The position numbers were made by a program, and so were the translations under genes. DNA of 64,000 nucleotides from Burkholderiales bacterium (GTDB lineage: Bacteria > Pseudomonadota > Gammaproteobacteria > Burkholderiales > Burkholderiaceae_C): the NCBI GenBank assembly GCA_016213325.1, contig JACRAY010000010.1, positions 68,927 to 132,926 on the forward strand, given 5' to 3'. Positions 24,902 to 61,735 of the stretch are shown piece by piece (within the stretch, counting starts at the first letter, position 1; each line of letters starts with the position of its first letter). The notes under the pieces were generated by a model, which had not been told where the DNA came from, searched no databases, and saw only the letters and a program-made list of their open reading frames with translations.

Positions 24902-24940
24902 GCGGGGATTATCATTGAACGAATGGCTCCCCCCTATGCA

Positions 24941-26805: not shown

Positions 26806-27767
26806 GGCACAGGCAACGCGGCGCCGCCTTGCTGCTGGCGATGCTCACGGTGACGCTGGTCGCCACTTTCGCGGCCGCGGCGCTGTGGCAGCAGTGGCGC
26901 GGCGTCGAGGTGGAGCGCGCCGAACGCACCCGCGTGCAGTCGGCCTGGATCCTCACCGGCGCGCTCGACTGGGCGCGCCTCATCCTGCGCGAAGACCGCG
27001 GCGGCTCGGACCACCTGGGCGAGCCGTGGGCGATACCGCTGCAGGACGCGCGGCTGGCCACCTTCCTCGCGGCCGACAAGGGCAACACCGTGGACACGCA
27101 GGCCGAGAACGCCTTCCTGTCGGGGCAGATCATCGACCTGCATTCGCTGCTGAACGTGGGCAACCTGGTCACCAGTGGCTCGCCCAGCGAGAAGGCGATG
27201 CGCCAGTTCGAACTGCTGTTCGAGCAACTCGGCCTGCCCCAAACCGAGCTGCGCCGCATGGCGGAGAACCTGCGCTTTGCGCAGGACATCCACATCGACA
27301 ACCGCAATTCGTCGCAGGCGGGCCTGCCGCCGCAGAAGGTGGAGCAACTCGTGTGGCTGGGCCTGTCGCTGCAGACCGTGGCCGCGCTGCAGCCCTACGT
27401 GACGATCCTGCCCGGGGCCAGCACCAAGGTGAACCTCAACACCGCGAGCGCCGAGGTCATCTACGCCGCGGCGCCGGGCCTGGCACTGGCCGACGCGCAG
27501 CGGCTGGTGGCCGAGCGCGACCGCTCGCCCTTCGCGAAACTGGGCGACGCCGCCGCACTGGTGGGCAACCCGCAAGCCCTGGCCGCCGACCTGGTGGACG
27601 TGAAGTCGGACACCTTCGAAGTGCGCGGGCGCCTGCGGCTGGACGATCTCGTCGTGGAGGAGCGTTCGGTGGTCAAGCGCGAAGGCGGCACCATCCGCGT
27701 GGTGGCGCGCGAGCGCGGCGTGGTGGATCCGGCTGCGCTGGCCAAGCTGGCGTCGGGGCGGCGCTAG
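26802..27767 (+). CDS. gspK: T2SS minor pseudopilin GspK
   Basis: 321 aa with a GTG start overlapping the gspJ stop. ...RGAALLLAMLTVTLVA... and ...NLNTASAEVI... (a helix-hairpin-helix-like GspK motif). Confidence 0.85.
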   Translation: MRHRQRGAALLLAMLTVTLVATFAAAALWQQWRGVEVERAERTRVQSAWILTGALDWARLILREDRGGSDHLGEPWAIPLQDARLATFLAADKGNTVDTQAENAFLSGQIIDLHSLLNVGNLVTSGSPSEKAMRQFELLFEQLGLPQTELRRMAENLRFAQDIHIDNRNSSQAGLPPQKVEQLVWLGLSLQTVAALQPYVTILPGASTKVNLNTASAEVIYAAAPGLALADAQRLVAERDRSPFAKLGDAAALVGNPQALAADLVDVKSDTFEVRGRLRLDDLVVEERSVVKREGGTIRVVARERGVVDPAALAKLASGRR

Positions 27768-27807
27768 GAAGCTGGGGTTGCACCCCAGCCTACAATCGAT
27801 TTCGTCT

Positions 27808-29013
27808 ATGAGTTCCCTCATTGTCCTGTTGCCGGCGGAACCGGCCGGCCCGGCCGGCGAGTTCGCTTTTGCGCTCAGCCCCGACCGCCGCACGGTGCAG
27901 GACCACGGCGCCGCGCCGCTGGCCCTGCTGCCGCAACCGCGCGGCGCGGGCGCCGAAGTGGTGGCGGTGGTGCCCGCGCAAGCCGTCTCGTGGCACCAGG
28001 TCGAACTGCCCAAGGGCGTGAACGCCGCCACGCCGCGCCTGCGCGGCGTGCTGGAAGGCCTGCTGGAAGAACGCCTGCTGGACGAACCCGACAACCTGCA
28101 CTTCGCACTGCAGCCCAACGCGGGCACCGGCATGGTGTGGGTAGCGGCCTGCGACCGGCAATGGCTGCGCGGCATGCTGGACGCGCTGGAAGGCGCGGGC
28201 CGGCCGGCCACGCGCATCGTCCCCGAGTTCGCGCCCGAGGGCGAAGGCACGCTGCATGCGCTGGGCGACCCCGACCATGCGCAGCTGGTGTGGTCGTCGA
28301 GCGACGGTGTGCTGGTCCTGCCGCTCACCGCCATGGCGGCGGCGCTGTTGCCGCCGGCCGCTGCCGAGGCGCGCTGCTGCGCCGAGCCGGCCGTGGCCGC
28401 GCTCGCCGAGCAGGCCCTGCATCGCAAGGTCGAGTTGCAGCAGGCGCCGCAGCGCTGGCTGCAGGCGGCGCAGTCCTCGTGGGACCTGGCCCAGCTGGAG
28501 TTCGCCAGCTCGAGCCGCACCCGCGCATGGAAGAAGTTCGCTTCCGGCTGGACCGAGCTGCTGGCTGCACCGCAGTGGCGCGCCGCGCGCTGGGCCGCGG
28601 CGGCGCTGGTGATCCTCAACATCGCCGGGCTCAACGCGTGGGCGCTGAAGGAGCGCCAGTCGCTCGAGGCAAAGCGCGTCGCCGTGCGCCAAGCACTGAC
28701 CCAGACCTTTCCCAACGTGAAGGTGGTGGTCGATGCGCCGGTGCAGATGGAGCGCGAGGTCGCGTTGCTGCGCCAGCAGGCCGGCGTGGCGTCGGGCCGC
28801 GACATGGAGTCGATGCTGGCCGCGCTCAGCATGGCCGCGCCGCCCGGGCGCACCGCTGCCGCAGTGGAATTCAACGGCAACGAACTGCGCGTGCGCGGCC
28901 TGCGCCTGACGGCCGACGAAGTGCGCCCGGTCGCCTCGAACCTCAAGAGCCTGGGCTATGGCGCCACCTTGCAGGGCGACGTGCTGGTGGTCGTTCAGGA
29001 GGCTGCCCCATGA
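27808..29013 (+). CDS. gspL: T2SS assembly-platform protein GspL
   Basis: 401 aa from the ATG MSSLIVLLP... (the track ORF starts at an upstream TTG). It has a cytoplasmic actin-like N-domain, a central TM (RWAAAALVILNIAGLNAW) and the expected position before gspM. Confidence 0.8.
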   Translation: MSSLIVLLPAEPAGPAGEFAFALSPDRRTVQDHGAAPLALLPQPRGAGAEVVAVVPAQAVSWHQVELPKGVNAATPRLRGVLEGLLEERLLDEPDNLHFALQPNAGTGMVWVAACDRQWLRGMLDALEGAGRPATRIVPEFAPEGEGTLHALGDPDHAQLVWSSSDGVLVLPLTAMAAALLPPAAAEARCCAEPAVAALAEQALHRKVELQQAPQRWLQAAQSSWDLAQLEFASSSRTRAWKKFASGWTELLAAPQWRAARWAAAALVILNIAGLNAWALKERQSLEAKRVAVRQALTQTFPNVKVVVDAPVQMEREVALLRQQAGVASGRDMESMLAALSMAAPPGRTAAAVEFNGNELRVRGLRLTADEVRPVASNLKSLGYGATLQGDVLVVVQEAAP

Positions 29014-29492
29014 CCTGGCAGCAGGCCGCCACGCAGCGCTGGGAGTCCCTCGTCCCGCGTGAAAAGCTGATGGTTGCATCGGCCGCTGCCGTGGTGGGCA
29101 TTGCGCTCGCCTGGTGGGTGCTGTTCGCGCCGGCGCTCGGCGTGCTGCGCGGCGCCGAAGCGCAGCATCGCACGCTCGATGCGCAGCGCCAGCAGATGGC
29201 ACGCCTGCAGGCACAGGCGCAGGCCCTGCAGGCGCAGCCGAAGCAGCCGCACGACGAGGCCATGCGCCTGCTGGAACAGGCCATCCGGCAGCAGCTGGGC
29301 GTGAGCGCGCGCTACACCATCCAGAACGACCGCGTGACCGTCACGCTCACCGGCACGCCGGCCGAAGTGCTGGCCCAGTGGCTGGTGCAGGCACGCGCGA
29401 CGGCCCGCGCCCTGCCCTCCGAGGCGCGGCTGCAGCGCAACGCCGCGGGCCTGTGGGAAGGCACGCTGGTGCTGAACCTGCCGCCGCGCTAG
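29010..29492 (+). CDS. gspM: T2SS assembly-platform protein GspM
   Basis: 160 aa. The ATG overlaps the gspL stop. It has a single N-terminal TM (LMVASAAAVVGIALAWWVLF) and the usual GspM size and position. Confidence 0.8.
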   Translation: MTWQQAATQRWESLVPREKLMVASAAAVVGIALAWWVLFAPALGVLRGAEAQHRTLDAQRQQMARLQAQAQALQAQPKQPHDEAMRLLEQAIRQQLGVSARYTIQNDRVTVTLTGTPAEVLAQWLVQARATARALPSEARLQRNAAGLWEGTLVLNLPPR

Positions 29493-29494
29493 CC

Positions 29495-30286
29495 GTGGCC
29501 CGCAAGCCGCCCGCCGCCGAGCCCGCCCCGTGGCCATGGGCCATTGCGGGCGCCGTGGCCGGAACACTCGCCGCCGTGGTCCTGTTCGCGCCTGCCCACT
29601 GGCTGGCGCAGGCGCTGGCGCGCGCCAGCAACGGGCAGGTGCTGCTGGCCGAAACGCGAGGCACGGTCTGGAACGGCTCGGGCCGGCTGCTGCTGGCGGG
29701 CGGGCCCGGCAGCACCGACCTGGCGGCCCTGCCCGGCCGCGTCGACTGGCGGCTGCGACCGCGCCTCACCGGCGCCATCCTGCAGGTGCGCGCGGCCTGC
29801 TGCTCGCCCCATCCCGTGCGCCTCGACGCGCGCTGGCGCCTGGCCGGGCCGGCACTGAAGGTCGGCGCTGCCTCCCTGCAGGTGCCGGCGGCCGTGCTCA
29901 CCGGCCTGGGCACGCCGTGGAACACGCTGCAGGTGGACGGCGACCTTGCACTGGCCACGCAGGGCCTTTCAGTAGAATGGGCCGAAGGCCGCCTGGCGAT
30001 GACGGGGCAGGCCGAACTGGTGGCGCGCAACGTGTCGTCGCGCCTGTCGACCTTGAGGCCCATGGGCAGCTACCGCATCACCGTGCTGGGCGGCGCCGCA
30101 CCTTCCCTGCGGCTGGACACGCTGGATGGCCCGCTCAGGCTGGCCGGCAGCGGCCAGTGGGTCGGGCAGCGGCTGCACTTCCGCGGCGAAGCCATGGCCG
30201 CGCCGGACCGCGAGGCGGCGCTCGCGAACCTGCTGAACATCATCGGGCGCCGCAGCGGCGGACGCTCCATCATTACGATCGGTTGA
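29495..30286 (+). CDS. gspN: T2SS protein GspN
   Basis: 263 aa from a GTG 3 nt after the gspM stop. It has an N-terminal TM and ...ETRGTVWNGSGRL..., a GspN-like motif. The start codon is uncertain. Confidence 0.7.
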   Translation: MARKPPAAEPAPWPWAIAGAVAGTLAAVVLFAPAHWLAQALARASNGQVLLAETRGTVWNGSGRLLLAGGPGSTDLAALPGRVDWRLRPRLTGAILQVRAACCSPHPVRLDARWRLAGPALKVGAASLQVPAAVLTGLGTPWNTLQVDGDLALATQGLSVEWAEGRLAMTGQAELVARNVSSRLSTLRPMGSYRITVLGGAAPSLRLDTLDGPLRLAGSGQWVGQRLHFRGEAMAAPDREAALANLLNIIGRRSGGRSIITIG

Positions 30287-30287
30287 C

Positions 30288-32372
30288 ATGCATTTCCGTC
30301 TTGCCCTCGCCACCTTCGCCGCCGTGCTGGCGTGTGTCGCCACGGTGCCCGCATTCGCGCAGCGCGCGGGCGAGCCCGTCACGCTGAACTTCGTCAACGC
30401 CGACATCGAAGCGGTGGCGCGCACCATGGGGGCCATCAGCGGCCGCAACATCGTGGTCGACCCGCGCGTGAAGGGCACCATCACCCTGTCGACCGAGCGG
30501 CCGGTCACGCCCGCGGCGGCCTTCAACCAGTTCCTGGCCACGCTGCGCCTGTCGGGCTTTGCGGTGGTGGAGTCGGGCGGCCTGCTGAAGGTGGTGCCGG
30601 AAGCCGACGCCAAGCTGCAAAGCGGCTCGGTCAACGTCGGCCCCACGCCTGCCGGCGGCGCGCAGATCGTCACGCAGATCTTCCGCCTGAACCACGAGAA
30701 CGCGGGCAACCTGGTGCCCATCCTCAGGCCGCTGATCAGCCCCAACAACACCATCAACGTCAACCCGGGCAACAACTCGCTGGTCATCACCGACTACGCC
30801 GACAACCTGCAGCGGCTGGCGCGCATCATCGCGGCGCTCGACATCCCCACCGGGACCGACGTCGAGGTGATCAACCTGCGGCATGCGCTTGCCTCCGACC
30901 TGGCGCCGGTGGTGCAGCGGCTGGCCGAAGCCAGCTCCGCCGGCACGACGGTGTCCGCGCCCGGGCAGGCGATCCAGGTCGGCGACAGTTCGCAGCGCAC
31001 CACCGTGATCGCCGAGCCGCGCAGCAATTCGCTGATCGTGCGCGCCTCCAACCCGGCACGCCTGGCCCTGGTGCGCAGCCTGGTGGAGCGGCTCGACCGT
31101 CCCAGCTCCGACAGCGCCACGGGCAACATCTACGTGGTCTACCTGAAGAACGCGGACGCCACGCGCCTCGCCACCGTGCTGCGCGCTGCCCTGGCGGGCG
31201 GCGGCAGCACCTCGGGCGGTACCGTGACCAGCACCGGCTCGAGCGCGGCTCCGACCCTGGGTGGCGCCACCACGGCCGGCGCTACGGCGGCCACGGCGCC
31301 CGTCACCACGCTCGCGCAGCCTTCCACGGGCGGCCAGATCCAGGCCGACCCGGCGACCAACTCGCTCATCATCACGGCGCCCGAGCCGCAGTACCGGCAG
31401 CTGCGTGCCGTGATCGACCGGCTCGACTCGCGCCGCGCGCAGGTGCTGGTGGAAAGCCTGATCGTCGAAGTGAGCGCCGACAAGGTCAACGAGTTCGGCA
31501 TCCAGTGGCAGAACGTGCTGGGTACCAGCAGCAGCAGCCTGGTAGGCTTCCTCGGCAGCAACTTCAGCGGCGCCGGCGTCGGCTCGGGGTCGGGCGTTGC
31601 GGGCAACATCATCGACCTCGCCGTGGGCGCAGCCAACGCATCGGCCAAGCCCGCCACCGGCTTCAACTTCGGTGTCGCGCGCAACATCGAAGGCAAGTTC
31701 CTGCTGGGCTTCCTGGCGCGCTTCCTCGAGACCAACGGCGATGCCAACGTCCTGTCCACGCCCAACCTGCTGACGCTGGACAACGAGGAAGCCAAGATCG
31801 TCATCGGCCAGAACGTGCCCTTCGTGACCGGCCAGTACACCAATTCGAACACCGGCACGGGCGGCAGCGTGAACCCGTTCCAGACGATAGAGCGCAAGGA
31901 CGTGGGCCTCACGCTGCGCGTGAAGCCGCAGATCAACGAGAACGGCACCGTCAAGCTGCAGATCTTCCAGGAGGTGTCGAGCGTGGTCGAGTCGTCGATC
32001 ACCTCCACCAGCGGCCTGATCACCAACAAGCGCTCGATCGAATCCAACGTGCTGGTGGAAGACGGCGCCATCGTCGTGCTGGGCGGCCTGCTGGAAGACC
32101 GCTTCTCGGGTGCGCAGGAGAAGATCCCCGGCCTGGGCGACGTGCCCGGGCTCGGCAACCTCTTCAAGACCGAGCGCAAGTCGCGCGCCAAGACCAACCT
32201 GATGGTGTTCCTGCGGCCCGTGGTGGTGCGCGACGCGGCCGAGACCGATGCCCTGTCGCTGGACCGCTACGAGCTGATGCGCACCAAGCAGGAAACGGCC
32301 GCGCCGCGCCGCCCGGACGCGCCGCCGGTGAACGAGGGCCCGGTGCTGCCGCCCGTGACCCGGCCGCGTTGA
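30288..32372 (+). CDS. gspD: T2SS outer-membrane secretin
   Basis: 694 aa with a signal peptide, N0-N3 domains (...VTLNFVNADIEAVARTM...) and a C-terminal secretin domain (...IVVLGGLLED...PGLGDVPGLGNLFK...NLMVFLRP...). Confidence 0.95.
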   Translation: MHFRLALATFAAVLACVATVPAFAQRAGEPVTLNFVNADIEAVARTMGAISGRNIVVDPRVKGTITLSTERPVTPAAAFNQFLATLRLSGFAVVESGGLLKVVPEADAKLQSGSVNVGPTPAGGAQIVTQIFRLNHENAGNLVPILRPLISPNNTINVNPGNNSLVITDYADNLQRLARIIAALDIPTGTDVEVINLRHALASDLAPVVQRLAEASSAGTTVSAPGQAIQVGDSSQRTTVIAEPRSNSLIVRASNPARLALVRSLVERLDRPSSDSATGNIYVVYLKNADATRLATVLRAALAGGGSTSGGTVTSTGSSAAPTLGGATTAGATAATAPVTTLAQPSTGGQIQADPATNSLIITAPEPQYRQLRAVIDRLDSRRAQVLVESLIVEVSADKVNEFGIQWQNVLGTSSSSLVGFLGSNFSGAGVGSGSGVAGNIIDLAVGAANASAKPATGFNFGVARNIEGKFLLGFLARFLETNGDANVLSTPNLLTLDNEEAKIVIGQNVPFVTGQYTNSNTGTGGSVNPFQTIERKDVGLTLRVKPQINENGTVKLQIFQEVSSVVESSITSTSGLITNKRSIESNVLVEDGAIVVLGGLLEDRFSGAQEKIPGLGDVPGLGNLFKTERKSRAKTNLMVFLRPVVVRDAAETDALSLDRYELMRTKQETAAPRRPDAPPVNEGPVLPPVTRPR

Positions 32373-32390
32373 CGTGATGCGGCGCTTTCG

Positions 32391-33794
<1,404 letters not shown>

Positions 33795-33845: not shown

Positions 33846-34397
33846 CTACTGTTCCTGCACGATGTTGTTGGCCCCGGTGTTGACGATGGTCGTCTTCTGG
33901 GTATAGCCGCCCGGGATCTTCAGCACGTTGTTGCTGCCGGCCAGGGTGATGTCCGGCACGTTGGCGCTGAAGGCTTCGATAGTGATCACGGCGTTGCTGC
34001 CGCCCACCGACAGCCGGTCGACCGTGTCGGCCGGGCCGATGTTGATGACGGCATTGGTGCCGTTGACGACGAAGTCGGCCACGGTGACCGTGGAGCCCAG
34101 CGACACGGAGTTGTTGGCCCCGCCGATCTGGATGTTGCTGACGATCGACGAGAACTCCACCACGATGGTGTTGTTGGAGCCGGTCACGTCGAGCTCGGTC
34201 ACCGTGTTGCAGCAAGCGATGGTGAGCCGGTTGCCGGTGGTCGGGATTTCCACCGCATACGGCTGCGTGCGATCGAGCCGCACCGTTTCGTTGCCGTTGC
34301 CGAGGATGACGGGCGAATCCGGGAAGTCGCTGCCACCGCCGCCGCCGCCGCAGGCGGTGAGCAGTGCCGTCAAGAAGATTGCGAGCAGATACTTCAT
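33846..34397 (-). CDS. lipoprotein built of short beta-solenoid-type repeats (DUF3060-like)
   Basis: 183 aa from the internal ATG MKYLLAIFLTALLTAC (lipobox) followed by GGGGGG. At least 7 repeats of about 20 aa carry the core G-[STA]-N-N-x-[IV]-x-[IVL] (GSNNTIVV, GANNSVSL, GTNAVINI, GSNAVITI, GSNNVLKI, GANNIVQ). Confidence 0.7.
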   Translation of the reverse strand: MKYLLAIFLTALLTACGGGGGGSDFPDSPVILGNGNETVRLDRTQPYAVEIPTTGNRLTIACCNTVTELDVTGSNNTIVVEFSSIVSNIQIGGANNSVSLGSTVTVADFVVNGTNAVINIGPADTVDRLSVGGSNAVITIEAFSANVPDITLAGSNNVLKIPGGYTQKTTIVNTGANNIVQEQ

Positions 34398-34561
34398 GGT
34401 TCCCCTCTTCCGGAAATTTTGGTTTGTCGCGTCAAGGCCGCCTCGAAAAGGAGCTCGCAACAGGAGGGAACATCATATCTGGCGGCGTTGCCGTCCGTAA
34501 CCCCCGTCGCGCCCAAGCGACAAAGTGTAAGTGCATCGTTCCCATTGCGGGAAAACGCGCA

Positions 34562-34720
34562 TCACACCCGCTCGGGCGGGCCGGGGCGACCGGGCAGCTC
34601 CACGGGTGCCTCGGGCGGACGGTCGTCTTCGGTGGGCGGCACCGCAGGGCGCGGGGGCGCGGTCGGTGGCGGCGCCTCGCTGGGCTCGGGCGCTTCGGGC
34701 AGGGCTTGGGCAGCTGGCAT
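34562..34720 (-). CDS. candidate 52 aa proline-rich acidic small protein, translationally coupled to the RTX/Ig gene
   Basis: The ATG overlaps the upstream TGA (TGATG). The product is MPAAQALPEAPEPSEAPPPTAPPRPAVPPTEDDRPPEAPVELPGRPGPPERV. About 80% of third codon positions are G/C, as in real genes here. However, Pro-rich frames also arise by chance in GC-rich DNA. Confidence 0.3.
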   Translation of the reverse strand: MPAAQALPEAPEPSEAPPPTAPPRPAVPPTEDDRPPEAPVELPGRPGPPERV

Positions 34721-36687
34721 CAGAAGAACGATACGTCCAATTGCTGGATGCTGCCGGCAAAAGCGCCGAAGCGGGCGGTGTTGAGCTCGTGCGCCGCCGC
34801 GAAAGCGAGGAACTCGGCGTTGGTCTCCCAGGTGAGGCCGGGGCCGATTTCCGAAGTGAACTGCTCGACCTGCTCCTGCGTGGGCGTGATGTGCGCCAGC
34901 GTCATGAAGAGGTGCGTGACCAGCGTGGCGCTGTCCACGCCGGGCGCATAGTGGTCGATCATGGCCTGCGCCAGCGCTTCCATGCTGCCGGCGATGTCGC
35001 CCTCGGCCACCCACTCGCTCAGCAGCGCCTGGCCGGGTGCGGCGCCGAACGCGGCCCACAGCAGCGCCTCGGCGTTCCAGACCGGCTCACCCACCTCGGT
35101 GTCGAACGCGAAGTAGGCGTTGGTGAACTGCACGCGCTCGATGCCGGTGAGCACCAGGTCGTCGCCGCTGGCCAGGCTCACTTCGATCTGCGACTCGGTG
35201 ATGGTGTAACTTTGCACCGCAGCCAGAGCCACGCCGAGGTCCGCCGTGTCGGTGCCGCTGCCGCCCGACAGCGAGTCGTCGCCCCCGCCGCCTTCCAGCG
35301 TGTCGCGGCCGCCCAGGCCGTTGATGATCTCGGTGGCAGGGGTGCCCACCAGGTGGTCGTTGCCTTCGGTGCCGTTGATGGTGGTGATGTTGCCCACCAC
35401 CGTGTTCGTTTCGGCCGAGGTGACACTCTCTGCCGTGCCTTCGTCGTCGGTGTAGCTCACCCGCACGCTGATCCGGGCGCCGACGTCGGCCTGCACCAGG
35501 GCGTACTCGGTGGAAGTCGCGCCGCCGATCACGTCGCCGTCGCGCAGCCACTGGTAGCTGAAGGTGCCCAGGCCGTCTTCGTCGGCGATGCCGTCGGCGT
35601 TGGCCGTGAGCAGCTGGCCGATGGCGGCAGCGCCCTCGATGGTGACGGTGCCGGTCGGGGCGTCGTTCACGTTGGCGACCACCGCAGTCGACGAAGAAGT
35701 GACCTGCTCGGCCGTGCCGTGGTCGTCGGTGTAGCTCACGCGCACGCTGATGGTGGCGTCGACGTCGGCCTGCGTGAGCTGGTAGGTACTGCCGGTGGCG
35801 CTGCCGATCGTCGCGCCGCCGCGCAGCCATTGGTAGCTGAAGTCGCCCAGGCCGTCGCCATCGGCCAGGCCCGCAGTGTTGGCCGTCAGGGTCTGGCCCT
35901 CGTCCGCGGTGCCGGTGATGGTGACGGTCCCGGTGGGCGAGTCGTTCACGTTGGCAATGTTGGCCGTCTGTGCCGAAGTCACCTGCTCGGCATAGCCGTC
36001 GTCGTCGGTGTAGCTGACGCGCACGCTGATTTTCGCGCCGACGTCGGCGTCGACCAGCGTGTAGGTATCGGACGTCGCCCCGCCGATGCTGCTGCCGTTG
36101 CGCAGCCACTGGTAGCTGAAGGTGCCGAGGCCATTGCCGTCCTGCACCGCGCTGGCGTCGGCGGTGAGGGTCTGGTTCTCGGTGGGGGTGCCGGTGATGA
36201 CGACGCTGCCGGTGGGGTCCTGGTCGGGGTCGCCGAGGGCGACGGTGTCGCCGGCGAAGTTCTTGGGCTGGGCGATGGCGGTGGCCGTGAGTGTCGAGCC
36301 CGATGTGCGCACCAGCGAGTGGACCCCGTCCGTCGGCAATGCACTGACCGTGTACGTGACGGTATCCGCCCCCAACCCAAAGTTGATCGTGACCGTCGTG
36401 CTTCCGGTGAAGAAGAGAAAGCCCGGATCTATTGTGTAGTCCGCAGTGATCCCGTAAGTCGTCTGGAATGCCTGCGTTGCGAGCAACACAGATGTGTTGC
36501 TCGTGGCATTGCTTGGAAGGTCAGCCTGGAACTGCAGCGTGTGCGGCACCCCGTTTTGCGTGACGGTTATCGACTCGCCTCCCCATTCGTCCTCGCCGTC
36601 GAAACCGCCCACCGACAATTCGATGAACTGCAAGGAGCCATCGTCATTGGAAAAGACTTCCTTGATGTCGTACCGGTGAAATGTCAT
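34720..36687 (-). CDS. large leaderless Ca-binding repeat protein: N-terminal LTD-like domain, 3 tandem Ig/cadherin-like modules, RTX nonapeptides, C-terminal ~128 aa module
   Basis: 655 aa from an ATG preceded by GGAGA (MTFHRYDIKEVFSNDDGSLQFIELS...). There is no signal peptide. There are three modules of ~93 aa (GTVTITGT..GQTLTA...DGLG.FSYQWLR.G..IGGAT...Y.L...DVGA.ISVRVSYTDD.G.AE.VTS). RTX repeats read GTEGNDHLVGT..INGLGGRDTLEGGGGDDSLSGGSGTD. The track ORF has 72 spurious N-terminal codons. Confidence 0.85.
   Translation of the reverse strand: MTFHRYDIKEVFSNDDGSLQFIELSVGGFDGEDEWGGESITVTQNGVPHTLQFQADLPSNATSNTSVLLATQAFQTTYGITADYTIDPGFLFFTGSTTVTINFGLGADTVTYTVSALPTDGVHSLVRTSGSTLTATAIAQPKNFAGDTVALGDPDQDPTGSVVITGTPTENQTLTADASAVQDGNGLGTFSYQWLRNGSSIGGATSDTYTLVDADVGAKISVRVSYTDDDGYAEQVTSAQTANIANVNDSPTGTVTITGTADEGQTLTANTAGLADGDGLGDFSYQWLRGGATIGSATGSTYQLTQADVDATISVRVSYTDDHGTAEQVTSSSTAVVANVNDAPTGTVTIEGAAAIGQLLTANADGIADEDGLGTFSYQWLRDGDVIGGATSTEYALVQADVGARISVRVSYTDDEGTAESVTSAETNTVVGNITTINGTEGNDHLVGTPATEIINGLGGRDTLEGGGGDDSLSGGSGTDTADLGVALAAVQSYTITESQIEVSLASGDDLVLTGIERVQFTNAYFAFDTEVGEPVWNAEALLWAAFGAAPGQALLSEWVAEGDIAGSMEALAQAMIDHYAPGVDSATLVTHLFMTLAHITPTQEQVEQFTSEIGPGLTWETNAEFLAFAAAHELNTARFGAFAGSIQQLDVSFF
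35389..36219 (-). repeat. intragenic tandem repeat, 3 units of about 276-279 bp (92-93 aa)
   Basis: The units start at aa 157 (DPTGSVVITGT), 249 (DSPTGTVTITGT) and 342 (DAPTGTVTIEGA) of the 655 aa protein. Many blocks are identical (FSYQWLR, ISVRVSYTDD). Confidence 0.85.
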
Positions 36688-36927
36688 CACAGTCTCCACA
36701 CCCCTGAAGGGTACGAAACGGCTTGGATTCACCCGCCCGGCTTTGGTTCCATTCGCACAAAGGAATGGCCCGCCGGCAGCTTCACAGCAGGGCGGGCCGA
36801 GGCGGGGAGAAAGGTTCCGGGTCGAGCCCGGGACGGCTTGAGTAGATCCCCGCCGTTGCAGCCGGAGAGAGCGACCGGCCACACAATTGCAGTGTAGGCG
36901 CACCGCCGCGGCACATGCTGACCTGCG

Positions 36928-37728
36928 TCAAAGTTCGGCGCGGGCCAGGCTGGCGATGAGCCGCTCGATCACGGTGTCGATGCGCTTCCAGTACGAAGGC
37001 TGGCGCCCGGCCAGCGCCCCGGCGGCAAGGCCGAGGTCCAGCGAGCCCAGCGGTGGCGGCGGCGCGAACCAGCGGCCGATGGCGGTGGCGTAGTCGTAGA
37101 ACTTGAAGCGCTGCGTGGGGTGCATGCGCCCGGCGTCGACCCATTCGTTGGGGATGCCGAGCGCATCCGCGGCGACCAGCCCGTGCAGGCTGGACGACAG
37201 GATGACCTCGCACTCGGCGATGCGCCGGATCACCGACTCGTAGTCGTCCGACCCGGCGTTGATGTACGTCCAGCCCTGCTCGCCGAGCCTGCGCTCGGCC
37301 TCGGGCGGCATGCGCTGCAGGTGGTGCAGCACGACCCCGCCGCGGTACTTCCGGGTGGCGTTGGCCAAGCCGGGGTACATCCGCCGCACCAGCAGCGCGG
37401 GGTCGCCCATGGGGACGTTGTCGACCTCCAGGCTGGCCGCCGTGATGGGCCCGCGCAGCGCCAGGATGCGCATCCCTTCGCGCTGCGGCGCCGGCAGGTA
37501 GCGCGGTGTCATCAGACCGGAGCCCCACACCAGCACCGGCCGGTCGATGCCGTTGGCGCGCCGCCGCGCGGCCTCGTCGGCAGCAAGGCCCACGATGCTG
37601 CCGACGCCGAACAGGTCCGCCTCTTCCGGCGGGCCCCACGCGATCTTGCGGCCGCAGGCGAATTCGACCAGCGCGGGACAGATCGCGTCGCCGAAGTTCG
37701 GCCGCTTGTTGTACCAGTGCCCCTTCAT
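36928..37728 (-). CDS. polysaccharide pyruvyl transferase family protein (ExoV-like)
   Basis: 266 aa from the internal ATG MKGHWYNKRPNFGDAICPAL.... The ATG overlaps the manC stop (ATGA). The motifs NFGD, ...VWGSG..., ...ALRGPITA..., ...GDPALL... and ...SSSLHGLVAADALGIP... parallel ExoV/PF04230 as I remember it. Confidence 0.75.
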   Translation of the reverse strand: MKGHWYNKRPNFGDAICPALVEFACGRKIAWGPPEEADLFGVGSIVGLAADEAARRRANGIDRPVLVWGSGLMTPRYLPAPQREGMRILALRGPITAASLEVDNVPMGDPALLVRRMYPGLANATRKYRGGVVLHHLQRMPPEAERRLGEQGWTYINAGSDDYESVIRRIAECEVILSSSLHGLVAADALGIPNEWVDAGRMHPTQRFKFYDYATAIGRWFAPPPPLGSLDLGLAAGALAGRQPSYWKRIDTVIERLIASLARAEL

Positions 37729-39140
37729 GGCGAGCGCCCGTAGCGGTCTTCCAGCCGCACGATGTCGTCCTCGCCGAGGTAGCTGCCCGACTGCACCTCG
37801 ATGATCTCCAGCGGCGCGGCGCCCGGGTTGGCGAGCCGGTGCGCATGGCCGGCGGCAATGTAGGTCGACTGGTTCTCGGCGACGAGCTGCACGCGGCCCT
37901 CGCAGGTCACTTCCGCCGTGCCGCGCACCACCACCCAGTGCTCGGCCCGCTGCGTGTGGACCTGCAGGCTGAGGCTGGCGCCCGGCTTCACGCAGATGCG
38001 CTTGACCTTGAAGCGCTCGCCCTGGTCGATGACCTCGTACCAGCCCCAGGGGCGATGCGACCTGCGATGCGCCTGCTGCTCCGGCCGCTGCTGCCGTGCG
38101 AGCGACTCGACCAGGTCGCGCACGTCCTGGCTGCAATCGCGCCGCGCCACCAGCACGGCGTCGGCGGTCTCGACCACCACCAGGTCGTCGACGCCGACCA
38201 CGGCGACCAGCCGCGACGAAGCGTGGGCCAGCGTGTTGCGGCTGCCGGCGACGAGCACGTCACCGGCACCGGCGTTGCCCGCATCGTCCTTCGGCAGCGC
38301 CTGCCACACGGCGTCCCACGCGCCCAGGTCGCTCCAGCCGGCCTGCAACTTCACCATGCCGATGGGGAACGGCGAACCGGGGCAGCGCTCCAGCACCGCA
38401 TAGTCGAACGAGTCGCTGCGCACGGCCAGGAAGGCCTCGCGGCCCGGCCGGGTGAACACGCCGTCGGTGCTGCGCTGCCGCCATGCGGCCGCCGTGCCCT
38501 CGGCGATGTCGGCGCAGAAGTGCGCGGCGGCAGCCAGCCACACCGACGCGCGCACGGCGACGATGCCTGCGTTCCAGCAGCAGTTGCCTGCTTCGAGATA
38601 GCGGCGTGCCGCCGGCGCGTCGGGCTTCTCGACGAAACGCAGCACGTCGTCGCCGTCGTGGAAGATGTAGCCGTATCCCGTCTCGGGCCGGTCGGGCACG
38701 ACCCCCAAAACGACGATGGCGCCGCCGGTCGCGCGTCGCACTGCCGAGCGCACGGCATCGGCAAAGGCTCGCGGGTCCGCGACGACGTGGTCGGCCGGCG
38801 TCGCAACGAGGATCGCGTCATCGCCTGCGGCCAGCGCAGCCAGCGTCAACGCCGCCGCCGTGCCGCGGCCCGCCGGCTCCAGCAGCACCTGCGCGGGCTC
38901 GATGCCCGCGTCATGCAGCTGGTCCACCACCAGGAAGCGATAGGCCTCGGCGGTCACCACGATGGGCGCGGTGACCGGCATGCCGTCCCCGGCGCAACGC
39001 GCCAGGCGCGCCGCAGCCGCCTGCAGCAGGGTGTCGCCGCCCACGACGGCATGGAACTGCTTGGGAAACTCGCCGCGCGACAGCGGCCACAGGCGTTGGC
39101 CCGAGCCTCCGCACAGGAGGACGGGGGTGATGGGCGTCAT
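37725..39140 (-). CDS. manC: mannose-1-phosphate guanylyltransferase / mannose-6-phosphate isomerase (type II PMI-GMP)
   Basis: 471 aa from the ATG MTPITPVLLCGGSGQRLWPLSR..FPKQF. The C-terminal cupin reads ...RPWGWYEVID.GERFKVKRI.VKPGASLSLQ.H..RAEHWVVV.GTA.... The track ORF starts at an upstream TTG. Confidence 0.9.
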   Translation of the reverse strand: MTPITPVLLCGGSGQRLWPLSRGEFPKQFHAVVGGDTLLQAAAARLARCAGDGMPVTAPIVVTAEAYRFLVVDQLHDAGIEPAQVLLEPAGRGTAAALTLAALAAGDDAILVATPADHVVADPRAFADAVRSAVRRATGGAIVVLGVVPDRPETGYGYIFHDGDDVLRFVEKPDAPAARRYLEAGNCCWNAGIVAVRASVWLAAAAHFCADIAEGTAAAWRQRSTDGVFTRPGREAFLAVRSDSFDYAVLERCPGSPFPIGMVKLQAGWSDLGAWDAVWQALPKDDAGNAGAGDVLVAGSRNTLAHASSRLVAVVGVDDLVVVETADAVLVARRDCSQDVRDLVESLARQQRPEQQAHRRSHRPWGWYEVIDQGERFKVKRICVKPGASLSLQVHTQRAEHWVVVRGTAEVTCEGRVQLVAENQSTYIAAGHAHRLANPGAAPLEIIEVQSGSYLGEDDIVRLEDRYGRSP

Positions 39141-39207
39141 GAGGGACGGGTCGTCAGCGGCGGTCAACTGCTGCCATCATGGCGCGAGGCGCGGCGGCTG
39201 GCAACGC

Positions 39208-41445
39208 TCAGGCCGGCAGGTACTCCAGCCCGTTCTGCTGCAGGCCCACGAAGCCGATGTGGTCCAGGTTGAGCGGGTGCCCGGCCGCCAGCCAGCCCAG
39301 CGACACCTGCGTGAAGGAACCCGACTCGATCAGCGACACGAAACTGTCGCGCACTGCGTCGGAGGGGGCGGAGCCCACCACGTTGGTGTACAGCAGGGTG
39401 ACGACCGACTGGTTGCTGCGGCCGGCGCCCAGCGCGACGTCCAGCGCCAGCCCGAACAGGGCGTCGCGGCTCATGCCGTCGTCGATGTAGGAAAGGCCGA
39501 TGCCTGCATACGTCGCATTGGAAACCGACGCCGCGCCGAACACCGCACCGAGGATCTTCGCCACGTCACCTGCGTTGCCCTGCAGGTCGTAGGCGATCGC
39601 GTGCGCGCTGTTGGGCTGCTGCATCTCGTACACCGAGAAGGTGTTGGTGGAGCTGGTGCCCTGCGCGTCGTTCCAGGTGCTGTAGAACGTGACGAGCTCG
39701 ATGTTGCCATCGCCGTCGTAGTCGCCCCATGTCACCGGGCTGCCGGCCTGCCCCGGCAGGTCGACGCGGTCGAAGTGGCCGGTGCCGTCGTTCATGTAGA
39801 TGAAGGGCGTGCGGTCCGAACCGCTGACCGTGTGGCCGGCGATGTCGAGGGCGCCGTCGCCGTTGGCGTCGAGCACCTGCCAGAAGTCGGTCCAGTGCAG
39901 GCGCTCGGTGAAGGTGTCGTCCAGTGCCGCGGGGTCGCCGAAGCGCGCCACCGTGGCGTCGGTGAAGCCGCCCGAGCCGTCGTTGCGCAGGAACTGCAGG
40001 TAGTTGCCGCCGTAGTACGGCTCGTAGCGGCTTTGCAGGACGACGAGGTCGAGGTCGCCGTCGCCGTCGAAGTCCTCCGAGAAGGTCTTCATGTGCAGGT
40101 TGTTGCTGGCGCCGTACAGCGACACCGGCAGCGTCGCCGAATCGGCGACGGAGAAAGTGCCGTGCCCATCGTTGAAGAACACGCGGCTGAGCGAGGTGTT
40201 GTGGCCCCAGCCGACCACCAGGTCGTCGAAGCCGTCGCCGTCGAGGTCGGCCATGTGCAGGTCGATCAGCACGCCGCTGGTGGCATCGGGCAGCGTGGGC
40301 TCTTTCCAGCCCGCCAGGGACTGCAGGAAATTGCTGGTCTGGTAGGTGAAGGTGCCGGCCAGTGTCTGCTGCAGGTAGAACACACCGCCGAACTCGCCCA
40401 CTACGATGTCGTCCATGCCGTCTCCGTTGACGTCGCCCACCGCCATCGAGTGCGCGTCGACCGCGGTGTCGCGCCCGGTCAGCTGGGCCTTGGGCAGGGT
40501 GTTGTCCGGCACCAGGTCGCTGGCGACGTCTTCGAACGGATCGGCCAGCGTGATGGTGATGTCGCCGAAGCGCCAGGGAATGTCGTAGCGCGTCTCGGTC
40601 TCGATCGCGGTGTCGTGCGCCACCGTAACCAGCGCTGAGCTGCCGTAGCGCTCGAGCCAGATGGTCTCGGTGCGGCGCGAGCCCGCGATGAACGCCGTGG
40701 ACTCGGTCAGGACCTCGCTGTACGTGATGGTGCCGCCCACGTTCTCCAGCACCTGGAAGTGGTAGCGCGTGTCGACCCCGGTGCGGTAGCCGCGGTTGAG
40801 CGGAATCACGAGGTCCATGTCGCCGTCGGCATCGATGTCGAACGGGTTGACGGCCTGCGGGAAGTAGCTGACGAGCGTGGGCGGGTTGTAGACGCCGGCA
40901 TACCACCAGCCTTCGGACCACTCGGTCTCGACGAACGAGTGCACGTCGTACGCGAAGGCGAAGTAGGGGTCGTCGCCGCGGTCTGCCACGTTGAAGCTGC
41001 GGTCGGCAAACGCCAGCGTCTCCACGTTGCGCAACTCGATCGACTGGTTGGTGCCCGTCAGGTAGACGGTGGAGCCGAACTGGCGGATGGCGTAGTCCGA
41101 CGACTGGAGTTCGTGCATGCGCACGGTGTCGCTGCCACCCGCCAGGTCGATCAGCGCATGGCCGCCGAAACAGAACACCACTTCGTTGGCGCCGGTGCCG
41201 GTTACGGTGGCACCGTGCCCCGGCAGGTGGAGTTCGGTGATGCCGGACAGCTGGTCGGTGCCGCCGTAGCCGTCCTGCGCCCAGCCCTGCGCCAGGTTGA
41301 TGACCACCGTCCCCTGCGCACCCCACAGCGCATAGCCGCTGGCACCCGCGCCGGTGATGTTGTCGTTGCCGGGGCCCGAGACGTAAGTGTCACCGGCACC
41401 GAGCGTGATGGTGTCGTTGCCGTTGCTGCCGTTGATGATCGCCAT
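39208..41445 (-). CDS. large leaderless FG-GAP/VCBS (integrin-alpha-like beta-propeller) repeat protein with N-terminal RTX-like repeats and a C-terminal ~127 aa module
   Basis: 745 aa. The N-terminus is MAIINGSNGNDTITLGAGDTYVSGPGNDNITG, with no signal peptide. Six to seven Ca-binding FG-GAP cores are present (DIDADGDMDLV, GDVNGDGMDDIVVG, ADLDGDGFDDLVVG, EDFDGDGDLDLVV, LDANGDGALDI, GDYDGDGNIELV). Confidence 0.85.
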   Translation of the reverse strand: MAIINGSNGNDTITLGAGDTYVSGPGNDNITGAGASGYALWGAQGTVVINLAQGWAQDGYGGTDQLSGITELHLPGHGATVTGTGANEVVFCFGGHALIDLAGGSDTVRMHELQSSDYAIRQFGSTVYLTGTNQSIELRNVETLAFADRSFNVADRGDDPYFAFAYDVHSFVETEWSEGWWYAGVYNPPTLVSYFPQAVNPFDIDADGDMDLVIPLNRGYRTGVDTRYHFQVLENVGGTITYSEVLTESTAFIAGSRRTETIWLERYGSSALVTVAHDTAIETETRYDIPWRFGDITITLADPFEDVASDLVPDNTLPKAQLTGRDTAVDAHSMAVGDVNGDGMDDIVVGEFGGVFYLQQTLAGTFTYQTSNFLQSLAGWKEPTLPDATSGVLIDLHMADLDGDGFDDLVVGWGHNTSLSRVFFNDGHGTFSVADSATLPVSLYGASNNLHMKTFSEDFDGDGDLDLVVLQSRYEPYYGGNYLQFLRNDGSGGFTDATVARFGDPAALDDTFTERLHWTDFWQVLDANGDGALDIAGHTVSGSDRTPFIYMNDGTGHFDRVDLPGQAGSPVTWGDYDGDGNIELVTFYSTWNDAQGTSSTNTFSVYEMQQPNSAHAIAYDLQGNAGDVAKILGAVFGAASVSNATYAGIGLSYIDDGMSRDALFGLALDVALGAGRSNQSVVTLLYTNVVGSAPSDAVRDSFVSLIESGSFTQVSLGWLAAGHPLNLDHIGFVGLQQNGLEYLPA

Positions 41446-41569: not shown

Positions 41570-42163
41570 ATGAAACTCGCATCGAAATTCGCGCTTGCGC
41601 TCACCGCAGGCCTCCTCGCCACCACCTGCCTGGCGCAGGCCAGGCTGTCGGGCGTGCATTACCTCGCCAGCTCCGAAATCCGGCCCGGGGTCAAGGTGCA
41701 ACTGAACGGCGCGGGCATCCGCTACCGCGGCCCGTTCAAGGTGTACACCGCCGGCCTGTACCTGTCGCGCGCGGCCAGCACCGCCGAAGAAGTGCTGGCT
41801 GCCGCGGGCGCCAAGCGGCTGGCCGTGACCATGCTGCGCGAGATCGACGCTTCCGAGCTCGGCAAGCTGTTCATCCGCAGCGTCGAAGACAACCTGGACC
41901 GCAGCACGTTCTCACGCGTGGTGCCGGGGCTGATGCGCATGAGCCAGATCTTCTCCGACCAGCGCAAGCTCTCGGCCGGCGACAGCTTCACGATCGACTG
42001 GGTGCCCGGTGTGGGCACGGTCATCAGCGTGCGCGGCGTGCCGCAGGGCGAGCCGTTCAAGGAAGCGGAGTTCTACCAGGCGCTGATGCGCATCTGGCTG
42101 GGGCCGGCACCGGCCGACTGGCAGTTGAAGGAACAGTTGCTCGGCCGGGACCCGCGGGCCTGA
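41570..42163 (+). CDS. periplasmic chalcone-isomerase-like family protein
   Basis: 197 aa from the internal ATG with signal peptide MKLASKFALALTAGLLATTCLAQA. ...LNGAGIRYRGPFKVYTAGLYL... is the usual bacterial chalcone-isomerase-like pattern, as I recall it. Confidence 0.65.
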   Translation: MKLASKFALALTAGLLATTCLAQARLSGVHYLASSEIRPGVKVQLNGAGIRYRGPFKVYTAGLYLSRAASTAEEVLAAAGAKRLAVTMLREIDASELGKLFIRSVEDNLDRSTFSRVVPGLMRMSQIFSDQRKLSAGDSFTIDWVPGVGTVISVRGVPQGEPFKEAEFYQALMRIWLGPAPADWQLKEQLLGRDPRA

Positions 42164-44836: not shown

Positions 44837-46501
44837 TCAAGTGGAATAGGTGGCGAACTTGGTGGTGGAAGCCACCGCCTTGCTGTCGGTGCGCACGTTG
44901 ATGAGCGCCGGCAGCCCGGAGTCGAAGGCGCGCTTCAGCGCCGGCTTGATCTGCGCCGGGTCCTCCACGTATTCGCCGTAGCAGCCCAGCGCTTCGGCCA
45001 TCTTCTCGTAGCGCGTGTAGCCCAGGTGCTGGCCCGGCTTGCGGTGCCCGTCGTCGCCGGTCCAGCCGCCGTTGAGGCTGACCACCGTCACCACCGGGAT
45101 CTTGTGGCGCACGGCCGTGTCAAGCTCCATCGCGTTCAGGCCGAACGAGCCGTCGCCGTGCAGCACCAGCACCTGCTTGTCCGGGCGCGCCACCTTGGCG
45201 CCGATGCCGAACGGCAGGCCCACGCCCATGGTGCCGAAGGCGCCCGAGTTGAGGCGGTGGCCCGGTACAAAGGTGCGCAGCGACTGCCGGCCGAAGTTGA
45301 GGATCTCCTGGCCGTCCACCACCAGCACGGCATCGCGGTCGAGGAACTCGCCCACTTCCTTGCACAGGCGCAGCGGATGGATGGGGCGCGAGTCACTCGA
45401 CATCTTCTCCAGCATCTTCGCGCTCTTGTCGCGATTGACGGCGCCCAAATGGCTCACCCACGCGCTGAAGCTATCCGGGCGCAGCTTGCCCTTGGCCTCG
45501 TCGATCAGCTGCTGCAGCACCGTCTTGGCGTCGCCCACGATGCCGACGTCGCAGGCGCGCGTGAGGCCGATCTCCTGCGCATCGATGTTCACCTGGATCA
45601 TCTTGGCGTCGGCGCTGAAGCGCGGCGCCGTGAAGTGGCCGTTGATGTAGTTGGAGCGCGTGCCGATCACCAGCAGCAGGTCGGCTTCGGCGAAAGCGGT
45701 GGCACGTGCATTCAGCAGCGACATCTCGTGGTCGTCGGGCACCACGCCGCGGCCCTGCGGTGTCGTGTAGAACGGGATGCCGGCGGACTCGATGAATTGC
45801 TGCAGTTCCGTCGACGCGCCGGACCACAGGATGCCGCTGCCGCTGACGACGATCGGCTTGCGCGCCTGCGCCAGCAGCGCGATGGCGTCGCGCACCGCCT
45901 GCGGGTTGCCGGCGGGGCGCTCGCGCGCCAGCGCCCTGGCGGGGTCGGGATAGACGATGTCGCTTTCGTCACTGGCGCGCTCGTAGAGCATGGCGCCGCA
46001 CACGTCCAGGTAGACCGGCCCGGGCCGCCCGCTCATGGCGTGCCGCATCGCGGTGGCCACCATCTCGGGGATGCGGCGGATGTCGGTAACGCGGTCGGCC
46101 CATTTGGTGATCGGCTTGAACAGCGCCACCTGGTCCATCTCCTGGAAGATGCCCGTGCCCGAAACGCTGATGGGCGCGGCGCCGCCGATCGCGACCATGG
46201 GCACCGCATCGGCCCAGGCAGTCGCGACGCCCGTGACCAGGTTGCACACACCGGGGCCGGACGCGGCCATGCACACGCCGGGCTTGCCGGTCACGCGCGC
46301 ATAGGCGTGCGCCATCATCGCGGCAGCCTGCTCGTGCCGCACGTCGATGCCGCGCATGCCTTCGTCCATGCTGTACAGCTCGGCATGGATCATGGGCCCG
46401 CCCATGAGGTAGAAGAAGTCTTCGACGCCGTGCTGGCGCAGCGCCTTCGCCAGGATCTTCGAGCCGATGGGGGGCTTTTTCGCGCCGGTGGGGGTCGTCA
46501 T
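44837..46501 (-). CDS. thiamine-diphosphate-dependent enzyme (acetolactate synthase / oxalyl-CoA decarboxylase family)
   Basis: 554 aa. The N-terminal PYR domain reads ...VRHEQAAAMMAHAYARVTGKPGVCMAASGPGVCN.... The TPP-binding motif is ...GDGSFGLNAMELDTAVRHKIPV.... Confidence 0.9.
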   Translation of the reverse strand: MTTPTGAKKPPIGSKILAKALRQHGVEDFFYLMGGPMIHAELYSMDEGMRGIDVRHEQAAAMMAHAYARVTGKPGVCMAASGPGVCNLVTGVATAWADAVPMVAIGGAAPISVSGTGIFQEMDQVALFKPITKWADRVTDIRRIPEMVATAMRHAMSGRPGPVYLDVCGAMLYERASDESDIVYPDPARALARERPAGNPQAVRDAIALLAQARKPIVVSGSGILWSGASTELQQFIESAGIPFYTTPQGRGVVPDDHEMSLLNARATAFAEADLLLVIGTRSNYINGHFTAPRFSADAKMIQVNIDAQEIGLTRACDVGIVGDAKTVLQQLIDEAKGKLRPDSFSAWVSHLGAVNRDKSAKMLEKMSSDSRPIHPLRLCKEVGEFLDRDAVLVVDGQEILNFGRQSLRTFVPGHRLNSGAFGTMGVGLPFGIGAKVARPDKQVLVLHGDGSFGLNAMELDTAVRHKIPVVTVVSLNGGWTGDDGHRKPGQHLGYTRYEKMAEALGCYGEYVEDPAQIKPALKRAFDSGLPALINVRTDSKAVASTTKFATYST

Positions 46502-46525
46502 GTCATTGCCTTGCTGTTGGGGAGT

Positions 46526-61608: not shown

Positions 61609-61735
61609 CTGGGGGTCGGCGGGCCGGTTTCATCACCACCGGGTGGTTGTTCGGCGGCAGGGGCGCTGCTGGGAATGTTGCTGGTGGTGGAGGTGCTTCA
61701 CCCAGCTGCGTCCGGCAGGGGCGGCTCGCTGAACG

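Follow-up and report, generated by a model that had tools for sequence, protein, structure and literature searches.

Two leaderless repeat proteins with a shared DUF4214-type C-terminal domain, encoded on either side of manC and an ExoV-like transferase gene

Six genes between gspE and a chalcone-isomerase-like gene

A block of six minus-strand genes lies between gspE and a chalcone-isomerase-like gene in a 64-kb stretch of the genome of a Burkholderiales bacterium (64,000 nucleotides of contig JACRAY010000010.1, hereafter the window), as we determined from lists of open reading frames (ORFs) together with Pfam and NCBIfam profile scans. Two of these genes encode large Ca2+-binding proteins – one built on FG-GAP repeats (745 aa), the other on Ig-like repeats (655 aa) – that lack a signal peptide and share a homologous C-terminal domain of the DUF4214 type. 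Between the two lie manC and a gene for an ExoV-like transferase of the PF04230 family, and a proline-rich micro-ORF and a small lipoprotein gene complete the block (Table 1). Our preferred reading, to which we give a probability of about 0.55, is that two DUF4214 surface proteins of the kind exported by type I secretion systems (T1SS) are encoded on either side of a gene for GDP-mannose synthesis and one for a glycan-modifying enzyme that can be swapped, and that these last two feed a pathway encoded elsewhere.

The six genes are co-oriented, as the initial annotation of this sequence had it. Its further statement that they directly follow gspE holds in that the block adjoins this gene with a gap of 52 bp, but gspE is on the plus strand and the block is therefore convergent with it. 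Housekeeping genes bound the block. Genes were placed by combining the ORF lists with the GC content of third codon positions (GC3), in a window whose GC content is 65–73% and in which true reading frames show a GC3 of about 0.9. The term "island", which had been applied to the block, is not one that we retain: a mobile island was rejected because there is no tRNA, there are no flanking repeats, the GC content matches that of the flanks with no compositional break, and the block is present at the same site in a sister genome described below.

The FG-GAP protein begins with an RTX-like module (about aa 1–150), continues with FG-GAP/VCBS repeats that are predicted to form a propeller, and ends in a domain that we call CTD-A; six DxDxDG calcium sites are found at aa 203, 338, 400, 458, 526 and 575. 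In the Ig-repeat protein, the N-terminal domain is followed by three Ig-like repeats of 93 aa each; after these come an RTX block, a strand with the sequence 'IERVQF' and, at the C-terminus, a homologue of CTD-A. Its single RTX block matches PF00353 at 28.2 bits (cutoff 23), and its match to a ZirU-like model, at 58.7 bits, is under the cutoff of 100. The two had been introduced as RTX "giants", a description that overstates both their size and their RTX content: both are mid-sized, their RTX blocks are short, and the 745-aa protein, which contains one strict and two loose nonapeptides, has no Pfam RTX match and meets the NCBIfam RTX_toxin model only at E 0.0085, far under its cutoff. Full-length homologues are 47–72% identical to the FG-GAP protein and 58–68% identical to the Ig-repeat protein.

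That both large proteins lack a signal peptide is borne out by their start codons, by the starts of their homologues and by GC3. The ATG of the FG-GAP gene is the first start codon past the upstream stop, and there is no earlier in-frame start. The ATG of the Ig-repeat gene is preceded at a distance of 9 nt by GGAG, its start methionine is shared by the homologues, and a 72-codon extension upstream of it is non-coding by its GC3 of 0.62. The KD19 hydrophobicity maximum is no higher than 1.3 in either protein. Because neither has a signal peptide, we rejected the two as cargo of a type II secretion system (T2SS), to which gspE belongs; the lipoproteins are possible T2SS cargo.

The manC product contains both the nucleotidyl transferase and the cupin isomerase, with the Pfam domains NTP_transferase, ManC beta-helix and MannoseP_isomer. 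The stop codon of manC overlaps the ATG of the transferase gene as ATGA, confirming an overlap that had been reported, and the translational coupling that this arrangement implies is real. The match of the transferase to PF04230 spans only profile positions 89–272 of 280, and no NCBIfam model matches it. A tblastn comparison with S. meliloti ExoV aligned 81% of the query at 27.3% identity, so that "ExoV-like" is valid as a statement of remote homology. The AlphaFold2 (AF2) model, with a pLDDT of 95.9, was placed by Foldseek among GT-B-type enzymes, the yeast pyruvyltransferase Pvg1p (5ax7) being in the top matches with an E of 2.4e-4 and a modest TM of 0.52; a sequence search of the transferase family against the PDB returned nothing useful. 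The initial assignment as an ExoV-like pyruvyl transferase is upheld as to family and fold, but pyruvylation itself is a putative activity. N11, G13, D14, R92, H182, K209 and D212 are retained in 48 homologues, and R92, H182 and K209 follow the sequence order of R148, H308 and K328, the residues with which CsaB binds phosphoenolpyruvate (PEP) (PMC10435577); the comparison is by order along the sequence, and the transferase has Ser at the position matching CsaB R306. The enzyme is soluble, with no hydrophobic segment.

The source's gene caller also predicted the micro-ORF, whose place, in the window and in two related loci (L089, ~12310–12451, and L090, ~4508–4651), is in every case between the genes for the Ig-repeat protein and the lipoprotein. 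Both the peptide and the site of its stop codon are conserved among the three, the micro-ORF is not in a constant frame with respect to the gene upstream, and a codon comparison of the window with L090 counts 16 identical codons, 16 with synonymous changes only and 15 with non-synonymous changes. We therefore rejected a chance ORF in GC-rich DNA, given the conserved peptide and stop and the many synonymous changes, and, given the differing frames, we likewise rejected the idea that the upstream gene is extended by read-through or a frameshift; the micro-ORF most likely encodes a real small protein, for which we found no signal peptide and no family match. A 95-aa ORF at 34473–34760 was rejected as spurious (GC3 0.64). 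The 183-aa lipoprotein contains six G-x-N-N-x-V repeats of about 20 residues each, and its match to DUF3060 reaches 22.6 bits (cutoff 23.1).

Table 1. Coordinates of the six genes, of domains and repeats within them, and of the two boundary genes in the window
Feature	Position	Strand	Evidence or remark
FG-GAP protein, 745 aa	39208..41445	-	PF13517 82.5 bits; PF01839 51 bits
CTD-A of FG-GAP protein, ~132 aa (aa 614-745)	39208..39606	-	Helical, DUF4214 type; 184.5 bits vs CTD-A profile
manC, bifunctional mannose-1-phosphate guanylyltransferase / mannose-6-phosphate isomerase	37725..39140	-	TIGR01479 549.7 bits vs cutoff 373
PF04230-family transferase, 266 aa, ExoV-like	36928..37728	-	PF04230 29.4 bits vs cutoff 25.3
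Ig-repeat protein, 655 aa	34720..36687	-	IG_AIR9 35 bits; HemolysinCabind 28 bits
Three tandem 279-nt (93-aa) Ig-like repeats	35401..36237	-	Direct repeat family D1, 71-73% identity, spacing 279
C-terminal domain of Ig-repeat protein (aa 524-655), divergent CTD-A/DUF4214-type	34720..35118	-	hhalign and BLASTP
Pro-rich micro-ORF, 52 aa (~47-52 aa across loci)	34562..34720	-	PEAPxPxEAPP...PVxLPGxPGPPERV; start overlaps the stop of the 655-aa gene as TGATG
Small lipoprotein, 183 aa	33846..34397	-	Lipobox LLTAC, then Gly-rich linker
gspE	32391..33794	+	Last gene of gspG..N-D-E cluster; T2SS Pfam matches in adjoining ORFs; context only
Chalcone-isomerase-like protein with signal peptide	41570..42163	+	PF16036 127 bits; other boundary; context only

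The C-terminal domain shared by the two large proteins

The last ~130 residues of the FG-GAP protein are kept in its full-length homologues. An hhalign comparison of the CTD-A profile with the C-terminus of the 655-aa family gave a probability of 88.6% and an E of 2.7e-6, and a profile of the latter matches CTD-A ORFs. In addition, a BLASTP search aligned aa 449–639 of the Ig-repeat protein, a segment that takes in the RTX block, 'IERVQF' and the C-terminal domain, with both RTX plus CTD-A cassettes of a further protein (P0377; E 7e-13 and 9e-10), whose N-terminal domain is 41% identical to that of the Ig-repeat protein. These comparisons show that the two large proteins share a homologous C-terminal domain.

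The Pfam family DUF4214 (PF13946) is matched by seven of ten segments consisting of CTD-A only, at the same place in each and above the gathering score in three, and by this measure CTD-A appears to be a divergent branch of that family. The AF2 model of CTD-A (pLDDT 96.9) is mainly helical and has a short strand at each terminus; a search of the PDB by sequence gave nothing useful. Among orthologues of the FG-GAP protein the C-terminus is swapped, and may be CTD-A, a canonical DUF4214 domain, an RTX-repeat tail that we read as a C-terminus of the T1SS type, or another tail that we read as dockerin-like.

We searched 1.84 billion representative proteins for CTD-A and found matches in 3862 clusters at E<=1e-3, with 926 at E<=1e-30. 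In approximately 144 of the 150 best matches no more than a few residues follow the domain, and its carriers range from 160 to 2512 aa in length. Among 128 Met-initiated representatives, only two have an N-terminus resembling a signal peptide, and at least one RTX nonapeptide is found in 88. A Pfam census of 78 carriers recorded RTX in 38, FG-GAP in 20 and DUF4214 in 16, along with Ig/cadherin domains, M10 and M12 peptidases and GH113. CTD-A marks a very large class of leaderless proteins, in which the domain as a rule follows a small number of RTX nonapeptides and a strand of the form 'IERxxF'.

Genes for CTD-A proteins also form arrays in metagenomic loci, with up to six in succession, including RTX metalloproteases and subtilases. 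In one such locus (L027/L091, JGI Ga0209962_1000162, ~0.5–14.8 kb) six genes in a row each end in CTD-A, and their passenger domains vary (RTX, FG-GAP, C-type-lectin-like, and GH113 plus RTX).

Conservation of the neighbourhood across genomes

To survey homologues of the FG-GAP protein, 77 loci from genomes and metagenomes were fetched with the FG-GAP family profile, to which we added contexts located by exact protein; manC and the transferase were sought near these loci by tblastn with the window proteins and with a hidden Markov model of the transferase family. A single locus is syntenic with the window. In this sister locus (L089), gspE (92% identical) and the chalcone-isomerase-like protein (87%) occupy the equivalent position, and five of the six genes are kept: the FG-GAP gene (72%), manC (74%), the Ig-repeat gene (68%), the Pro-rich peptide and the lipoprotein (72%). 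Its manC starts 15 bp downstream of the FG-GAP gene, so that the spacing between these two genes is 15–67 bp over the two genomes. The transferase slot is filled by an unrelated gene of 250 aa on the opposite strand (L089:9144-9896, minus), whose GC3 of 0.87 indicates good coding statistics. The product of this gene contains the motifs FIDTDM (DXD-type) and GEDYSFCWRW, has no match in Pfam, NCBIfam or the PDB, and aligns weakly with a family 2 glycosyltransferase (GT2; E 0.07); from the DXD-type motif and the GT2 alignment, it may be a GT-A-like enzyme, possibly one that has not been described.

The sister locus also carries an additional 762-aa lipoprotein gene between the small lipoprotein gene and gspE (L089:13151-15439, minus), which is absent from the window. 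Its product has the lipobox LILSAC, weak BACON/TIG matches and beta-propeller repeats.

A second related locus (L090) carries just three of the six genes and no manC: the Ig-repeat gene (58%) with its micro-ORF, and the lipoprotein gene (53%), all next to an M3 peptidase gene. Elsewhere, a 67%-identical orthologue of the FG-GAP gene stands alone beside a major facilitator superfamily (MFS) transporter gene, an orthologue at 58% identity has RTX proteases with CTD-A on its flanks, and three further FG-GAP contexts contain no glycan or T1SS genes. The suggestion that the six genes would travel together is thus true of parts of the block – the FG-GAP and manC pair in the sister locus, and the Ig-repeat gene, micro-ORF and lipoprotein gene in both related loci – but no full six-gene set was found elsewhere. 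The six do not travel together beyond close relatives, and the neighbourhood is lineage-specific. Its stable sub-unit is the trio of Ig-repeat protein, micro-ORF and lipoprotein, and the transferase is an exchangeable cassette that the other genes do not require as a partner.

These results bear on the main rival to our reading, namely plain adjacency, by which manC and the transferase would serve a lipopolysaccharide (LPS) or exopolysaccharide (EPS) pathway located elsewhere and be functionally unconnected to the genes on either side, with the sister locus reflecting inherited synteny. The close relationship of the only syntenic locus, as measured by gspE and the chalcone-isomerase-like protein, is what this account would lead one to expect, as are the orthologues of each gene that occur separately elsewhere, and a terminator/promoter scan, which was uninformative, gave no evidence to link the three transcription blocks. 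However, the short spacing of the FG-GAP gene and manC in two genomes suggests co-transcription, and a September 2026 preprint on Psh, an RTX-DUF4214 protein, reports that DUF4214 genes often lie beside O-antigen genes. We consider plain adjacency possible, but on balance unlikely.

Homologues of the transferase, the nearest of which is 48% identical, occur in varied settings. Two (L002 and L003) adjoin genes for large TPR proteins; two others (L004 and L005) are within a cluster of p450, carrier protein and GT2 genes; and one, in Octadecabacter antarcticus 307 (L094, CP003740.1, 10001–10816), is inside the suf operon between sufB and sufC, an Fe-S cluster operon and an odd setting for a polysaccharide enzyme. 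On plasmid p202 of Pseudooceanicola algae (L096, 4219–6768), a protein of 849 aa with a glycosyltransferase family 2 annotation has a transferase-like domain (34% identity) as its C-terminal part. No manC was found beside the transferase homologues in these contexts. Such variety within the subfamily calls for caution over the activity and the acceptor that are predicted for the window enzyme. The gene for the 849-aa fusion protein adjoins one for a very large hypothetical protein.

A cytoplasmic enzyme encoded between two exported-protein genes could also act upon those proteins. In such a scheme the transferase, and the slot gene of the sister locus, would modify both proteins before export with sugars derived from GDP-mannose. 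The solubility of the transferase, and the location of the variable enzyme slot between the two genes, would be in keeping with this. However, the characterised PF04230 enzymes act on glycans and not on proteins (PMC10435577, PMC6801904), no oligosaccharyltransferase or mannosyltransferase is present, and no precedent is known among RTX/DUF4214 proteins. We regard protein glycosylation as very improbable.

About 45 ORFs of the window were scanned with Pfam, leaving a few stretches outside scanned ORFs, and none of them encodes a T1SS component, glycosyltransferase, flippase or polymerase, in agreement with what had been noted from the sequence initially. The ABC systems within the window are importers, and the other ORFs represent the gspG..N-D-E cluster, central metabolism, an oxc/frc-like pair and regulators. 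This gene content bears on the initial hypothesis, which was that the six genes are a self-contained module in which a pyruvylated mannose epitope, produced by manC and the pyruvyl transferase, is bound by both repeat proteins, analogous to the recognition of CsaB products by SLH domains. Certain features do point in that direction: manC follows closely behind the FG-GAP gene in both genomes, manC and the transferase are translationally coupled, Psh has been proposed as an O-antigen binder, and the slot beside manC in the sister locus is filled by a different gene, for which a glycosyltransferase is suggested only by motifs and the weak GT2 alignment. Nevertheless, a locus that lacks T1SS, glycosyltransferase, flippase and polymerase genes is not self-contained; no transferase gene is present in the only syntenic relative, which speaks against dependence on pyruvate; neither manC nor the transferase is near FG-GAP or CTD-A genes at any other fetched locus; the Ig-repeat trio occurs without manC in L090; and Pfam gave no SLH match in either large protein, so that the SLH/CsaB analogy does not hold at the level of domains. 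In this form we find the hypothesis quite improbable.

Other features of the window deserve brief mention. The T2SS cluster on the plus strand (~24900–33794) reads gspG-H-(I,J)-K-L-(M)-N-D-E and ends at gspE; no gspF, gspC or prepilin peptidase gene was found among the scanned window ORFs, and the break in the T2SS genes is identical in the sister locus. At 61600–64000 the GC content is ~0.60, compared with 0.65–0.73 elsewhere, and two ORFs in this region (62010–62681 and 63040–63999) matched no Pfam or NCBIfam family; this segment may be foreign DNA. On the minus strand at 44837–47752, a gene for a thiamine pyrophosphate (TPP)-dependent decarboxylase adjoins one for a family III CoA-transferase, and the two look like an oxalyl-CoA decarboxylase / formyl-CoA transferase pair.

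Proposed export and glycan attachment, and known systems

We return to our preferred reading, in which two T1SS-type surface proteins flank genes of glycan synthesis. Both large proteins do look like exported or surface proteins, as was initially supposed: they are leaderless, they share a DUF4214-type C-terminal domain, and they have a parallel in Psh. We infer a secretion route, a binding to glycan, and a pyruvylation activity with its acceptor as follows. Both proteins would exit the cell through a T1SS encoded elsewhere in the genome, the DUF4214-type domain would hold them on the cell surface by way of LPS or EPS, as proposed for Psh, and the FG-GAP propeller and the Ig-like repeats would be exposed, adhesin-like parts. 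The product of manC is predicted to make GDP-mannose, and the most likely role of the ExoV-like enzyme is to decorate, with a pyruvate ketal, a lipid-linked sugar of a polysaccharide that would be assembled by genes outside the window. That manC and the transferase lie between the surface-protein genes may be a sign that surface proteins are expressed together with a glycan building block or its decoration, and a functional link between these proteins and a mannose-containing glycan is plausible. Because the Ig-repeat gene, the micro-ORF and the lipoprotein gene travel together, the micro-protein and the lipoprotein are probably accessory factors of the Ig-repeat protein.

Several results weigh against this reading. 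No T1SS genes (ABC exporter, membrane fusion protein or TolC-like channel) are present in the 64-kb window, and a motif scan of ~860 kb around homologues found no ABC exporter, so that the secretion route rests on architecture and analogy. The C-terminal domain of the FG-GAP protein scores 13 bits against PF13946, where the cutoff is 23.2, and that of the Ig-repeat protein has no direct Pfam DUF4214 match. The best PDB matches of CTD-A by Foldseek, though consistently domains of the phycobilisome linker, are weak (E >= 0.2, TM ~0.41); it is in this structural superfamily that the Psh preprint places DUF4214 (bioRxiv 10.64898/2026.09.02.748959). With the exception of the sister locus, there is no manC or transferase near FG-GAP or CTD-A genes in the 77 loci and added contexts, and the sister locus itself is without the transferase, whose homologues are also found away from glycan genes, as in the suf operon. 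Finally, the binding of Psh to O-antigen was proposed from modelling only (bioRxiv 10.64898/2026.09.02.748959).

A more far-reaching proposal would be that CTD-A is a general tag that holds thousands of leaderless exported proteins to the surface polysaccharide of the cell that produces them. The ligand in this lineage would be a mannose-containing glycan, the swappable gene beside manC would determine how that glycan is decorated (with pyruvate here, differently in the sister genome), and the Pro-rich micro-protein and the lipoprotein would be dedicated outer-membrane partners of the Ig-repeat protein. We think this improbable as a whole.

At present, the locus adds two members to the DUF4214-type class, as well as one small conserved gene trio. 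If the coupling to glycan synthesis is real, it would offer a compact case of how exported proteins tagged with DUF4214 are retained on Gram-negative cells, and variation in the decoration of the glycan could retune the attachment of the proteins. Such coupling would also bear on adhesion, on the masking of phage receptors that is claimed for Psh, and on the role of a domain found on thousands of proteins of aquatic bacteria.

Among known systems, the transferase is most readily compared with ExoV (succinoglycan) and GumL (xanthan), which are ketal pyruvyl transferases of the PF04230 family. The genes for ExoV and GumL sit in full EPS clusters with glycosyltransferases and Wzx/Wzy, whereas the window transferase has only manC beside it. 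GumL has a small size similar to that of the window enzyme. In the SLH/CsaB system of Gram-positive bacteria, an enzyme of the same family makes a pyruvate ketal on the secondary cell wall polymer as an epitope to which proteins are anchored (PMC6030368, PMC10435577). The present locus differs in having no SLH domains, in its Gram-negative envelope and in a transferase that is not conserved with the proteins.

Closer in kind are two Gram-negative surface proteins. The S-layer protein RsaA of Caulobacter crescentus is an established RTX-type surface protein that is held by the O-antigen of LPS (PMC6978808). What RsaA would share with the window proteins, on our reading, is that it is an RTX-type protein, exported by a T1SS, dependent on Ca2+ and held by a surface polysaccharide; RsaA differs in that it binds through an N-terminal domain, forms a lattice and has no DUF4214 domain. 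The T1SS and O-antigen genes of RsaA are near the rsaA locus.

Psh (PP_1794) of P. putida KT2440 is an RTX-DUF4214 protein whose export by an adjacent T1SS was shown experimentally and which blocks phage, and most RTX-DUF4214 genes adjoin O-antigen or T1SS genes (bioRxiv 10.64898/2026.09.02.748959). As judged by its described architecture, Psh resembles the window proteins in the absence of a signal peptide and, to the extent of the profile matches given above, in its RTX repeats and in a helix-rich C-terminus of the DUF4214 type; it likewise has surface-glycan genes as neighbours, and is proposed to be retained on the producer cell via surface polysaccharide. In contrast to Psh, which is essentially RTX plus DUF4214, the large proteins described here add passengers (the FG-GAP propeller and the Ig-like repeats), their C-terminal domains belong to a divergent branch that falls under the Pfam cutoff, no T1SS is adjacent, and the neighbours are manC and an ExoV-like enzyme instead of an O-antigen operon. 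Psh and RsaA are therefore precedents in kind for an arrangement that was at first thought to be undescribed. The self-contained, pyruvate-dependent form in which that arrangement was proposed is unsupported by the gene content and by the sister locus, but the general idea, that repeat proteins are exported and held by a glycan of the cell surface, has direct precedents in these two systems.

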